Translations under genes and position numbers: made by a program | DNA from: an uncultured Eubacteriales bacterium | GTDB taxonomy: Bacteria > Bacillota > Clostridia > Christensenellales > CAG-138 | Direction of reading: 5' to 3' | DNA: 63,470 bases | NCBI GenBank assembly: GCA_900542615.1 | Contig: UQOG01000003.1 | Location: forward strand, 1-63,470 | Shown here: piece by piece, positions 55,531-57,755 of the stretch | Position numbering within the stretch: position 1 is the stretch's first letter | Layout: every line of letters starts with the position of its first letter | Notes under the pieces: generated by a model | Database searches by the model: none | What the model was told of the DNA's origin: nothing | What the model saw: the letters and a program-made list of their open reading frames with translations, nothing else

Positions 55531-55899
55531 TCACCTTCCGTTTCCGATCCCCGCCAGCTTCAGCGCCCGTACCAGGTGCTTGAACTCCGCCGGCTTCACC
55601 ACATAGTCCGTCAGATGCAAGCGCACCCCCATCACGGCGTATTGGCTGGTGTCCGTCAGAAAAATCAGGGGGACCTTCTGATCAAGCTCCCGCAGCCGCC
55701 GTACCGTCAGGAACCCGGCCGGCCCGTCCTGGCTCAGCAGGATCGCCCGAAACCTGCGCATCCGCATGGCCTCCATCAACTGATTGACGTTTTCATATAG
55801 GACCACGGATTCTTGCTGGTCATAAAGCTGGCAGATCTGTTGAACCCGGTGCTGGAGTTCCATACCATTATTCTTATTTTCATCGCAAATCCCGATCAT
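55531..55899 (-). CDS. Stand-alone receiver (REC) domain protein, apparent pseudo-receiver
   Basis: 122 aa. The acidic pair is IGICDEN. The conserved Thr (IFLT) and Lys (VVKP) are present. At the phospho-acceptor position it reads AILLSQDG, where both LytTR paralogs have FLD(V/I). Confidence 0.7.
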   Translation of the reverse strand: MIGICDENKNNGMELQHRVQQICQLYDQQESVVLYENVNQLMEAMRMRRFRAILLSQDGPAGFLTVRRLRELDQKVPLIFLTDTSQYAVMGVRLHLTDYVVKPAEFKHLVRALKLAGIGNGR

Positions 55900-56027
55900 C
55901 GCCTTGCCGGCACCGTTTCCTTCCCGGTTCCTGGGAAACCTATGAACTTTCCGCCTTCCTGATTGATTTGCAAATCATCTCATACCAATCTGTCGCTGGG
56001 TCTTCATATATGCTGTATGCTGAATAA

Positions 56028-56070
56028 ATTATAAGGCAAGGAATTGGCATATGTCCACGGAATTGTCATA
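56028..56070 (-). promoter_or_regulatory. Candidate CIS-operon promoter (TGGACA-N18-TATAAT) embedded in a 12-bp direct repeat resembling LytTR boxes
   Basis: The minus strand reads TATGACAATTCC-GTGGACA-TATGCCAATTCC-TTGCCT-TATAAT. The repeats are at 56070-56059 and 56051-56040 (11/12 identical, 19 bp start to start). The -35 is at 56057-56052 and the -10 at 56033-56028, about 130 nt upstream of the REC-only start. Confidence 0.5.
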
Positions 56071-56085
56071 AACTGCAAAAACATG

Positions 56086-56793
56086 TCACGAGTGCGTGCA
56101 ATGCGCGGCGATCCACTCCCGCACTGGATGGAGCTTATCTTCGCTAACCGGGATCTGTTCCCCATTGTCCAGCTCCAGTGTCCTGCCCGCCAGTTTGCGC
56201 ACATGGCTACCGTTGACCACATAGCTCCGGTGGCAGCGGAAAAACCGGGGGGAAGGCAATTGCTCGGCCAGCTGGTTAAGGGTACGGTTGGTGTTGACCT
56301 GCTCCTGAAGCAGGCAGATCCGGCTGGTACGGCCGGATACGGTTACGTAAAGGATATCCGCCAAAAGCACCTTGCGGTGGATCCGGGCGGAAACCACGGT
56401 AATGCTGCCCATAGATTGGAGAAACAAGCCTCGGTTCCACTGAAGCAGCTCAAAGAGCTGCTCGGCGGCCACCGGCTTGACAAAAAAACCGGCAGGATGC
56501 ACCTGATAGCAGGAAAGGGCTGCTGCGCCGTCTTGGGAAAGGAATACGATTTGGCAGCTGTCTGTGCATTTGCGGATATGCCGTGCCAGCTCCAGGCCGG
56601 AGGTTGGGGCCAGGTTGACGTCCAGGAAGATAAAGTCAAACCTCCCCGGCCGATATTCCTGCAAAAAGGCATCCGCGGTAGCATAGGAGGCAAGGTGTAC
56701 CAACACCTCCGCAGATTGGAACCAGCTGAAAAGCAACTGTGCAAGCCGCGCCTGCTCTCCTTGATCTTGGCTGCATATGGCAATTTGGATCAT
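56086..56793 (-). CDS. LytTR-family response regulator (REC plus LytTR DNA-binding domain), copy 2
   Basis: The REC domain has FDFIFLDVNLAPTSG and FFVKP. The LytTR domain has ILYVTVSGRTSRICL...FFRCHRSYVVNGSHVRKL. Confidence 0.9.
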   Translation of the reverse strand: MIQIAICSQDQGEQARLAQLLFSWFQSAEVLVHLASYATADAFLQEYRPGRFDFIFLDVNLAPTSGLELARHIRKCTDSCQIVFLSQDGAAALSCYQVHPAGFFVKPVAAEQLFELLQWNRGLFLQSMGSITVVSARIHRKVLLADILYVTVSGRTSRICLLQEQVNTNRTLNQLAEQLPSPRFFRCHRSYVVNGSHVRKLAGRTLELDNGEQIPVSEDKLHPVREWIAAHCTHS

Positions 56794-56809
56794 GCGTTCC
56801 CCTTATGCT

Positions 56810-57008
56810 CAGGCTGTCGAAAAAGTGGCTTGCGCCACTTTTTCGAGGTGTTCATAGCTCCCTTGCGCCTACGGCGCGGCCAGGGAGCTATGCAAGGAAA
56901 CCCTTGCTACGCAAGGCTTTTTGCGGATTTGACGCGCATGTCGCCAAATCCGATCAAAGCCTCCGGGGGCTGCGGCCCCCGAACCCCCGGGGGGTTTTCG
57001 ACAGGCTG
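56810..57008. repeat. Structured ~200-bp multi-hairpin intergenic repeat (MITE/REP-like) with 14-bp terminal inverted repeats
   Basis: CAGGCTGTCGAAAA (56810-56823) versus TTTTCGACAGGCTG (56995-57008) match at 13/14 as an inverted repeat. Internal hairpins: AAAAAGTGGC/GCCACTTTTT, CATAGCTCCCT/AGGGAGCTATG, CCTTGC/GCAAGG, GGATTTG/CAAATCC, GGGGGC/GCCCCC. The first 34 nt recur at 63437-63470. Confidence 0.75.
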
Positions 57009-57038
57009 GCTGTTTTTTTCGCCCAGCCCACAAAAGGG

Positions 57039-57755
57039 CTATATACCCTCCCGGACCTTTTGGAACATCCATTCGCAGAAGCACTGCTTCGCCTTGGCCC
57101 GCATGGTTGCGCTGATGGGCACATGGCAGCTGTCCTGCAGGATGAAATCGCCGGTGGTCATATTGGCGATATAGTTCATATTAACGATATAGCTACGATG
57201 GCAGCGAAGAAAATCCTTGGGCAGTTCCTGCTCCAATTCCACAAGGCTGCGGTTGGTGGTATAGGTACGGCCCGTGGTATGGAAAATGGCTTCCCGGCCA
57301 AACACCTCGATATATTGGATCTCCCCCAGCAGGACCTGGACCCGCTCCCGCTCGAATAGGATCTCGATGGCCTGGGCCATGGGGGAGATGTTTTCCAGGC
57401 ACCAGTCCACGGTCTCGTCCAGCTGGCCCTGGGTATAGGGCTTGAGCAGGTAGCCCGCCGCATAGACCCCATAGCTTTCCAGGGCGTGGTCCTCGCTGGT
57501 GGTGGTGAATACCAGCTGGCAGCCCGTATCCTTTTCCCGGATGGCCTTGGCAGCCTCCATGCCGGTGAGGGCGGGCATATAAATATCCAAAAATAGGATC
57601 TGATACTTCCCCGGAGCAAAGGCGTCTAGGAGGGCCCGGCCGTCGGCAAAGGGCTGGATCTCCGCCTGCACATGCCGGTCGGCGCAATACTGTTGCAGCA
57701 TGGAAACCAGCTCCCGCCGGTCGGCGGCGCTGTCATCGCATATGGCAAATCGCAT
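57039..57755 (-). CDS. LytTR-family response regulator (REC plus LytTR), copy 1
   Basis: The REC domain has FAICDDS, YQILFLDIYMPALTG and YLLKP. The LytTR domain has IQYIEVFGREAIFHT...FLRCHRSYIVNMNYI. Confidence 0.9.
   Translation of the reverse strand: MRFAICDDSAADRRELVSMLQQYCADRHVQAEIQPFADGRALLDAFAPGKYQILFLDIYMPALTGMEAAKAIREKDTGCQLVFTTTSEDHALESYGVYAAGYLLKPYTQGQLDETVDWCLENISPMAQAIEILFERERVQVLLGEIQYIEVFGREAIFHTTGRTYTTNRSLVELEQELPKDFLRCHRSYIVNMNYIANMTTGDFILQDSCHVPISATMRAKAKQCFCEWMFQKVREGI

Follow-up and report, generated by a model that had tools for sequence, protein, structure and literature searches.

A LytTR regulator cassette and a predicted tandem-repeat promoter at the contractile injection system locus of gut Clostridia without the cassette kinase

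Among described two-component systems, the closest working analogue of the locus considered here is PlnBCD of Lactiplantibacillus plantarum, in which an HPK10-type histidine kinase and two regulators with LytTR DNA-binding domains share one operon. The locus lies in a 63,470-nucleotide (nt) stretch of DNA from an uncultured Eubacteriales bacterium (contig UQOG01000003.1, assembly GCA_900542615.1; "the window" denotes this whole stretch). It consists of two receiver-LytTR (REC-LytTR) response regulators and one receiver-only protein, given the working names RR1, RR2 and pREC, beside the operon of an extracellular contractile injection system (eCIS). The plnBCD operon resembles the layout RR1-kinase-RR2 that is ancestral for this cassette. 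The pln promoters, which carry two 9-bp repeats with a 12-bp spacer directly upstream of the -35 element, the right repeat being better conserved (PMC2714321), resemble the eCIS promoter of the window in their arrangement. However, PlnC and PlnD are 59% identical, whereas RR1 and RR2 share about 30% and RR2 has no acidic pair. Neither a pheromone gene (plnA) nor auto-induction of the regulator operon is seen here, the repeats have a period of 20 bp instead of 21 and a different sequence, and the target is a contractile injection system rather than bacteriocins. Furthermore, the kinase has been deleted in the window lineage, and an extra pseudo-receiver is present.

AgrCA of staphylococci and VirSR of Clostridium perfringens likewise pair an HPK10 kinase with a REC-LytTR regulator that acts at direct repeats beside the -35 element, and VirSR has no adjoining pheromone genes. 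The window differs from both in having two regulators and a pseudo-receiver and in lacking agrBD and a kinase. CmrRST of Clostridioides difficile likewise has a pseudo-receiver within a two-component module, in which a kinase, a canonical regulator and a pseudo-receiver regulator are co-encoded and presumed to cooperate (PMC12632262; PMC12548384). However, CmrRST belongs to the OmpR family and its pseudo-receiver has a DNA-binding domain, whereas pREC is bare and lies in the target operon. The mechanisms proposed for pseudo-receivers include heterodimer formation with a canonical receiver (BldM/WhiI) and kinase interference (CmrT), and BldM-WhiI indicates that atypical receivers can work as heterodimers (PMC12632262). 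These precedents are the most sensible guides to pREC. Serine is found in 15% of aspartate-less receiver domains (PMC4395418). Like the aspartate-less receivers BldM-WhiI, FrzS and RitR, pREC has no acceptor aspartate and keeps the Thr/Tyr coupling pair. It is distinguished from the others by retaining the Asp/Glu pair, Thr and Lys, by its single-domain form and by its restriction to one eCIS clade.

For eCIS, a global survey names regulators of the GerE/LuxR, BTAD and RfaH types (PMC8213781), and about 9% of the GerE-associated operons have an adjoining histidine kinase (PMC8213781; PMC10598620). The sole proposed "conserved eCIS regulator" is a GerE/LuxR protein (PMC8213781), and a recent review calls the induction and regulation of eCIS loci without pyocin-type regulators unclear (PMC10598620). 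No open reading frame (ORF) of the window matched GerE (PF00196) in Pfam, and the locus is thus outside the GerE/LuxR type. GerE/LuxR, BTAD, the RfaH-like AnfA1 and PrtN/PrtR are locus-adjacent regulators of phage-tail-like particles, as are the regulators here, which differ from them in belonging to the LytTR family, in having a nameable cis-element, in the pseudo-receiver placed within the operon and in the existence of a natural kinase-less variant. In the literature searched, no paper joined LytTR with a contractile injection system, and nothing relevant was retrieved for eCIS with a response regulator or histidine kinase. Taken singly, the parts are ordinary members of their families; their combination, an eCIS-dedicated LytTR cassette with an operon-embedded pseudo-receiver and, here, no kinase, has not been described before.

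The regulator cassette and the eCIS promoter

The features of the cassette and of the eCIS promoter, all on the minus strand, are as follows.

57886 to 57915, minus strand: sigma-70-type promoter upstream of RR1, TTGACC-18-TATAAT, an 11/12 match
57039 to 57755, minus strand: RR1, canonical REC-LytTR regulator of 238 amino acids (aa), by Pfam
56086 to 56793, minus strand: RR2, atypical REC-LytTR regulator of 235 aa, by Pfam
56061 to 56090, minus strand: two direct repeats with a 20-bp period, predicted LytTR site
56081 to 56090, minus strand: distal repeat CGTGACATGT, overlapping the RR2 stop codon
56061 to 56070, minus strand: proximal repeat TATGACAATT
56042 to 56051, minus strand: third box-like copy TATGCCAATT, 19 bp downstream of the proximal box, in the -35/-10 spacer
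56028 to 56057, minus strand: eCIS core promoter, -35 TGGACA, 18-nt spacer, -10 TATAAT, an 11/12 match
55531 to 55899, minus strand: pREC, single-domain aspartate-less receiver of 122 aa, first gene of the eCIS operon, by Pfam

The window was compared with ten further contigs of the same species (11 sequences in all) and with related loci, designated by L-numbers, among which L017 is Candidatus Pelethousia gallinarum and L018 an uncultured Clostridia metagenome-assembled genome (MAG). The order SfsA / RR1 / RR2 / pREC / g366 / g145 / g143 / sheath is found in all ten same-species contigs, and in about 11 lineages, which differ in their flanking genes and show three orientations, the regulator cassette keeps its synteny with this eCIS type. 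Judged by pREC, Ca. P. gallinarum is the closest named genome (96% identity); Ca. Pelethousia is a Clostridia genus from the chicken gut that is also recorded in human gut studies. The window species itself is common in gut metagenomes. The exact pREC protein occurs in 200 index blocks of a collection of 5.8 billion proteins, on many gut-metagenome contigs.

The head of the eCIS operon carries a conserved pair of direct repeats with the consensus YATGACAWTT, and the -35 element starts three bases past the proximal one. Their 20-bp period places the repeats on one helix face, and from this promoter architecture they are predicted to be a binding site for a LytTR-domain dimer. A single match to the pattern TGACA-N13-17-ATGACA exists in the window (0.04 expected), and the paired box was present exactly once, in the same place, in 16 of 16 loci of 17-21 kb each. 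In an alignment of ten lineages both repeats, the -35 and the -10 are conserved, the sequence between and around them has diverged, and neither the proximal repeat nor the distance between the repeats has changed. The arrangement in L026 is informative, as the regulators there are divergent and pREC comes after an eCIS_core gene and a 170-aa gene; the repeats and promoter stand at the head of this longer eCIS operon, not behind RR2. Because the repeats remain at the operon head despite the inverted regulators, the element belongs to the eCIS operon. Single half-sites with at most one mismatch number seven in the window against 13.6 expected, three of them forming the 56042-56090 cluster, and there is thus no sign of a wider regulon inside the window. 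The third box is present only in the window species and L017, and a regulator bound to it would be expected to hinder RNA polymerase or to repress.

The two regulators differ in their phosphorylation sites. RR1 (Response_reg 1.1e-14, LytTR 2.6e-18 in Pfam) has the acceptor region ILFLDIYMP and a set of phospho-site residues, comprising the acidic pair DD, the acceptor Asp, Thr/Ser in TTTS and Lys in LLKP, that is invariant in ten of ten lineages. RR2 (Response_reg 3.7e-12, LytTR 6.2e-21) also keeps the acceptor Asp in the window (FIFLDVNLAP), together with Thr/Ser in FLS and Lys in VKP; in L024 a His occupies the acceptor position. Its acidic metal-binding pair is replaced by SQ in the window and by TG, SG, TQ, SA, IS and others elsewhere, and is absent in all 12 lineages. 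As these include lineages that bear the kinase, RR2 was already atypical before kinase loss. The NCBIfam models AgrA, LytR and BtsR were matched far below their cutoffs, so the regulators are not orthologs of these proteins.

RR1 and RR2 probably form a transcription unit separate from the eCIS operon, to judge from the sequence upstream of RR1. Since they have a near-consensus promoter of their own, the eCIS operon proper is headed by pREC. No paired repeat box or shared motif was found upstream of RR1 in the window and seven other lineages, and the 8-mers shared among these eight are AT-rich promoter-like words only. The regulator operon, having no repeat boxes before RR1, is thus not auto-induced, unlike agr, com and pln.

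These results bear on a preliminary description of the same DNA, which had reported two paralogous REC-LytTR regulators and a 122-aa REC-only protein at the head of the eCIS operon. The three ORFs stand at the coordinates given there, all on the minus strand, and Pfam supports their domains. The reported LLSQD at the acceptor position of pREC, against FLD in the regulators, holds in both alignment methods described below, and the 3-nt distance from the pREC stop to the next gene is exact (TGA at 55531-55533, CCC, then the g366 ATG at 55527). The pseudo-receiver is genuine, as alignments, the AlphaFold2 (AF2) model and Foldseek identify a conserved aspartate-less receiver. The proposed tie between the LytTR regulators and the injection system is borne out by synteny in about 11 lineages, rearranged ones included, and by the conserved tandem-repeat promoter. 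Four points need amendment: the regulators are paralogs, but distant ones; RR2 is atypical, with SQ in place of DD; the regulators do lie upstream of the injection system genes, but with their own promoter, pREC being the first gene of the operon proper; and the long gap between RR1 and RR2 is a peculiarity of this strain.

Loss of the cassette kinase and the proposed circuit

The search for the kinase covered the 63-kb window and, by an ortholog profile, the 5.8-billion-protein collection. Pfam searches of every sizeable ORF in the window matched no HisKA, HATPase_c, HATPase_c_5 or His_kinase domain and no AgrB or C39-peptidase ABC exporter, and tblastn with three kinases of related loci detected no kinase-gene remnant there (best E 0.36). 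The absence of a sensor kinase, AgrB/D-like gene and peptide exporter noted in the preliminary description is upheld by these searches. The only ABC exporters of the window (13055-16703) are ordinary ABC_membrane plus ABC_tran proteins beside a TetR gene, about 38 kb from the regulators and over 7 kb outside the injection system locus, on its far side.

In eight more distant lineages the orthologous cassette encodes an HPK10-type kinase of 434-446 aa, separated from its neighbours by gaps of a few bases and located between RR1 and RR2 (L011, L013, L020, L023, L024, L026) or before RR2 (L015, L025). In L024 and L026 the RR1-kinase-RR2 unit as a whole points in the opposite direction to the eCIS operon. 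A PF14501 catalytic domain, a multi-pass N-terminus and the motifs RHDLRHH (H-box), GNxxENALEA (N-box) and GIGL (G-box) place the kinase in the AgrC/ComD/VirS type. A ninth lineage, L027, has a short 251-aa kinase beside two LytTR genes, and L028 has neither LytTR genes nor pREC and carries a divergent hybrid HisKA kinase-receiver beside g366. The kinase is missing only in the window species (with its ten further contigs), L017 and L018, which are mutually closest relatives and have the SfsA flank in common. The most parsimonious explanation is one deletion in their common ancestor. Read from this gene-order comparison, the ancestral layout is RR1-kinase-RR2, with the cognate HPK10 kinase deleted in the window clade; the saturation of synonymous sites between the window and L018 makes the loss old.

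The profile search recovered seven full-length ortholog clusters of the kinase, each on eight contigs or fewer, and all of those checked were in eCIS loci of other lineages. The g366 cluster of the window species has 577 members in the same collection. As kinase orthologs are rare and belong to other lineages and window-species proteins are abundant, a relocated ortholog in the window species is unlikely. The suggestion in the preliminary description that the kinase is encoded elsewhere is therefore not the simplest reading.

It is reasonably probable that RR1 and/or RR2 control the eCIS operon through the repeats, that their kinase has been lost and that pREC modulates the regulators. In this model, the three genes would be the remains of a dedicated eCIS cassette, the ancestral operon of which comprised RR1, the HPK10 kinase and RR2 under its own strong promoter, and was followed by the eCIS operon with pREC as its first gene. 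RR1 and/or RR2, acting at the repeats, would determine transcription of pREC and g366 as well as of the sheath, the tube and the other particle genes. The window species, Ca. P. gallinarum and one related MAG would descend from an ancestor in which the kinase gene was cleanly deleted, leaving a switch that still works after loss of its dedicated sensor. The canonical RR1 could now be phosphorylated by acetyl phosphate or by a non-cognate kinase, or the atypical RR2 could act independently of phosphorylation. Most likely, pREC would bind the receiver of RR1 or RR2 (in relatives, perhaps the kinase), and, since it is the first product of the regulated promoter, such binding would give feedback on eCIS expression. 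Besides such feedback on the regulators, the other obvious option is that pREC may act in partnership with g366. The gene content, the residues, the loss of the kinase, the selection and the conservation and position of the promoter are observed; from sequence and comparative genomics we infer the binding of the regulators to the repeats, the sign of regulation, the present input and the partner of pREC.

A second explanation, that of the preliminary description, shares this promoter model and differs only in the input. RR1 and RR2 would be orphan regulators served by an HPK10 kinase and a pheromone cassette elsewhere in the genome, placing the eCIS under quorum or peptide control, as in VirSR with its distant agrBD. 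The lost kinase was of the AgrC/ComD/VirS type, with PF14501 and a multi-pass N-terminus, and RR1 has kept all its phosphorylation residues under purifying selection long after the kinase was lost. Furthermore, there are more distant HPK10 kinases with many database members (e.g., P0049), one of which could be that of this species. However, the cognate kinase was in the cassette and has been deleted, and its seven ortholog clusters are as rare as described above in comparison with the abundant proteins of the window species. In kinase-bearing relatives the genes called within 10 kb of the cassette included no pheromone, AgrB or C39-exporter gene, and the regulator operon, being without boxes, is missing the auto-induction loop of peptide quorum systems. 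We consider this explanation unlikely.

The pseudo-receiver and constraint on the cassette

The proposed circuit, which combines RR1 and/or RR2 acting at the repeats with a lost kinase, also assigns a part to pREC. This protein matches Response_reg alone in Pfam (1.9e-08, 34.9 bits, cutoff 30.2). Its acceptor region reads AILLSQDGP, and Ser56 aligns with the acceptor Asp both in the MAFFT alignment and in HMMER alignments to 6m8o, TorR and MrkE. The pocket is otherwise kept, with D6/E7, the Thr of LTDT, Tyr99 and the Lys102 of VVKP. The motif S-x-D-G-P, with its invariant Asp two residues after Ser56, does not vary among all close orthologs examined, down to 47% identity; a distant 136-aa pREC-like protein in L027 is without it. 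On sequence grounds, pREC is not phosphorylatable on Asp at the acceptor site, and it fits the class of aspartate-less receivers. With 14 clusters the family is small, and it is confined to a single eCIS clade.

The AF2 model of pREC is a (beta-alpha)5 receiver fold of five strand-helix units, with a predicted local distance difference test score (pLDDT) of 84, and Foldseek aligns it to CheY, Spo0F and other receivers with template modelling (TM) scores of 0.7-0.77. Among solved structures the best sequence match is 6m8o, deposited as a DNA-binding response regulator, which we take to be the receiver domain of the LytTR-type regulator LytR. If this is right, pREC probably arose from a LytTR-type regulator through loss of the DNA-binding domain. 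The beta4-alpha4-beta5-alpha5 segment, LIFLTDTSQYAVMGVRLHLTDYVVKP, is almost invariant, and the N-terminal half is variable. The alpha4-beta5-alpha5 face, the most conserved surface of pREC, is the one that receivers use to dimerise or to dock partners. Two further features of pREC and its leader are listed here.

pREC protein, YAVMGVRLHLTDY face: candidate partner-pairing surface
55896 to 55924, minus strand: GGAAGGAAACGGTGC element with the Shine-Dalgarno sequence GGAAGGA, 19 nt before the pREC ATG; the motif is present in most lineages

Downstream of GGAAGGAAACGGTGC there is a 5-codon GTG mini-ORF, the stop of which overlaps the pREC start (ATGA), and which could provide termination-reinitiation coupling to pREC. 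Mini-ORFs of 4-5 codons that begin with GTG 5 nt past the Shine-Dalgarno sequence and overlap the pREC start through ATGA or GTGA are present in 6 of 11 lineages. The mini-ORF was rejected as a general coupling device, given that it occurs in these six lineages only and that the GTG has become GTA in L015 and L023.

A further alternative, to which we assign a smaller probability than to an orphan kinase elsewhere, is that the kinase-less cassette, rather than a crippled two-component system, would be a rewired, sensor-free circuit in which pREC is the true control point, through either pairing with RR1/RR2 or phosphorylation of Ser56. In the first version, pREC would act as an anti- or co-activator by pairing, which would make eCIS expression feedback-driven and possibly bistable, confined to a subpopulation. 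In the second, Ser56 would be phosphorylated at the former Asp site by a Ser kinase/phosphatase system, for which the HAMP-PP2C-HATPase_c_2 protein encoded at 18587-20578 is a candidate. Phosphorylation of Ser at a former acceptor site has been raised only speculatively (PMC4395418), and, if true, pREC would be the first documented receiver regulated in this way.

To return to control by RR1 and/or RR2 at the repeats, selection on the cassette after kinase loss is a further part of the evidence. RR1, RR2 and pREC are under purifying selection in the kinase-less clade, the ratio of nonsynonymous to synonymous divergence (dN/dS) being 0.14 for RR1, 0.15-0.16 for RR2 and 0.04-0.12 for pREC. The corresponding values are 0.23 for SfsA, a neighbouring housekeeping gene, and 0.10-0.13 for the sheath, and pREC is one of the most constrained genes of the region. 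The frames are intact in the 11 same-species sequences and in three species, and synonymous divergence (dS) between the window and L018 is saturated.

Several points nonetheless weigh against the proposed circuit. The assignment of the repeats as a LytTR site comes from promoter architecture, the ATGACA of the repeats differs from the published LytTR consensus and their period is 20 bp, not 21. L024, the most distant cassette lineage checked, has one recognisable half-site only. The three kinase-less lineages show one or two mismatches in the distal repeat, against none in four kinase-bearing ones, and the core promoter is near consensus (11/12) in the kinase-less clade; taken together, these two features mean that the promoter might no longer need an activator. 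In a single deep kinase-less pair, RR1 and RR2 have diverged relatively more than g366 and pREC, which hints at relaxed constraint, and a 202-nt repeat element is tolerated between the two regulator genes in the window strain. The role given to pREC is drawn by analogy from its likeness to BldM/WhiI and CmrT.

The same mismatches, near-consensus core, faster regulator evolution and tolerated insertion would be expected if the cassette were a decaying relic, in which the eCIS promoter became constitutive after kinase loss and RR1, RR2 and pREC no longer exert control. The dN/dS of 0.14-0.16 of the regulators and the intact frames oppose such decay, although synonymous sites between the window and L018 are saturated, as do the perfectly kept proximal repeat and spacing and the high constraint on pREC. 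Moreover, a core promoter of 11/12 is not peculiar to kinase-less lineages, since the kinase-bearing L025 and L026 have the same score. We regard a relic as improbable, slightly more so than a circuit centred on pREC. Finally, that the regulators act on unrelated targets and adjoin the eCIS by coincidence is very improbable. In favour of this reading, LytTR near eCIS is not statistically enriched in the global survey (19 occurrences, a "shell" domain; PMC8213781 supplement). Against it, about 11 lineages with varied flanks and three orientations combine the cassette with this eCIS type, every checked full-length kinase ortholog is in such a locus, and the eCIS operon head carries the sole paired box of each 17-21 kb locus.

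Neighbouring genes and significance

The remaining features of the region, likewise on the minus strand, are given below.

56807 to 57008, minus strand: hairpin-rich repeat of 202 nt resembling a miniature inverted-repeat transposable element (MITE), from alignment with same-species contigs
54427 to 55527, minus strand: g366, conserved all-helical protein, from the ORF call and AF2 model
53460 to 54309, minus strand: g145 and g143, a pair of small conserved genes that separate g366 from the sheath gene, from ORF calls
24274 to 53373, minus strand: Afp/PVC-type eCIS structural and effector genes, sheath to eCIS_core, by Pfam

The eCIS is complete by Pfam. Besides the sheath, it has four tube-family proteins (one CIS_tube and three of the gp19 type), gp25, baseplate J, a spike resembling VgrG, an eCIS_core protein, an Afp16-like Pvc16_N protein, a PAAR-like DUF4280 protein and an Afp15-like AAA ATPase. 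The families matched were Phage_sheath_1, gp19 (three times), CIS_tube, Phage_base_V, GPW_gp25, Baseplate_J, Pvc16_N, DUF4280, AAA and eCIS_core, and no capsid, portal or terminase family was matched in the eCIS locus.

The Shine-Dalgarno sequence of g366 lies inside the last codons of pREC, and from this arrangement and the 3-nt gap g366 is translationally coupled to pREC. The g366 family is larger than that of pREC (107 clusters against 14), and where checked all its members were in this eCIS type. No Pfam, PHROG or NCBIfam match and no significant fold match in the Protein Data Bank (PDB) was obtained for g366, the AF2 model of which is all-helical (pLDDT 66). The genes g145 and g143 matched no Pfam, PHROG or NCBIfam family except for a weak, sub-threshold YbjN-like match of g143. 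Between close strains g145 (53872-54309) has a dN/dS of about 1.4, and it is 57% identical to its L018 counterpart; either selection on it is very weak or diversifying, or the gene has been called with the wrong frame or extent. The sole strong Shine-Dalgarno sequence of the sheath gene, AAAGGAGGA (53417-53425), is 43 nt before the ATG (region 53373-53425). An 8-bp hairpin at 53384-53414, between the two, could bring them together, and an out-of-frame ATG stands directly 3' of the Shine-Dalgarno sequence.

The gap of 245 nt between RR1 and RR2 consists of 43 nt plus the 202-nt insert. The site is empty, with a spacer of about 43 nt, in ten of ten other same-species contigs and in L017 and L018. 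The two ends of the insert form nearly perfect inverted repeats, it contains six hairpins (RNA fold -131.9 kcal/mol, z = -7.45), and copies were found at 63436-63470, the right end of the window, at L002:2432-2631 and at L004:4574-4882. These properties identify it as a small mobile repeat. Its final hairpin, GUGGC-GCAA-GCCAC, is followed by UUUUU and could attenuate read-through into RR2. A permissive Rfam scan of 53000-59000 gave just two chance-level matches to eukaryotic lncRNA, and no known RNA family was recognised in the pREC 5' leader or in the insert.

At the far (3') end of the eCIS locus (18587-24114) there are two genes. The first (18587-20578) encodes a 663-aa HAMP-SpoIIE(PP2C)-HATPase_c_2 protein, a Ser phosphatase/kinase of the partner-switching type, and the second a 961-aa protein with a major facilitator superfamily (MFS) transporter half; in L026 an MFS gene follows RR2. 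The HAMP-PP2C-HATPase_c_2 protein could be an additional regulatory input, and a link between it and Ser56 of pREC is pure speculation. Further left, four tyrosine-recombinase/integrase-like genes, one apparently truncated, and SLH-domain fragments (443-3030 and 9147-11150) suggest that a region in the left part of the window, over 7 kb from the 3' end of the eCIS locus, is mobile or has been rearranged. Over 51108-58647, dS of the window against L003 and L017 forms a mosaic, with 0.29-0.42 for SfsA, RR1 and RR2 and 0.02-0.12 from g366 to the sheath and tube genes; pREC is identical to that of L003 but has a dS of 0.53 to L017. Such a pattern suggests that strains have recombined, or that the eCIS operon has recently spread among them, with breakpoints close to the pREC promoter.

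The locus points to an entire clade of eCIS loci in gut clostridia that is served by a dedicated LytTR two-component cassette, and the abundance of the window species in the gut contrasts with the recorded depletion of eCIS in mammalian microbiomes outside Bacteroidales (PMC8213781). Within this clade pREC is a new, narrowly distributed, aspartate-less single-domain receiver encoded inside the operon that it may help to regulate. Lineages with and without the sensor kinase, in which the other parts are orthologous, constitute a natural experiment, and the named cis-element makes eCIS regulation directly testable. Knowing the switch would help the production of these particles in culture and the identification of their targets.

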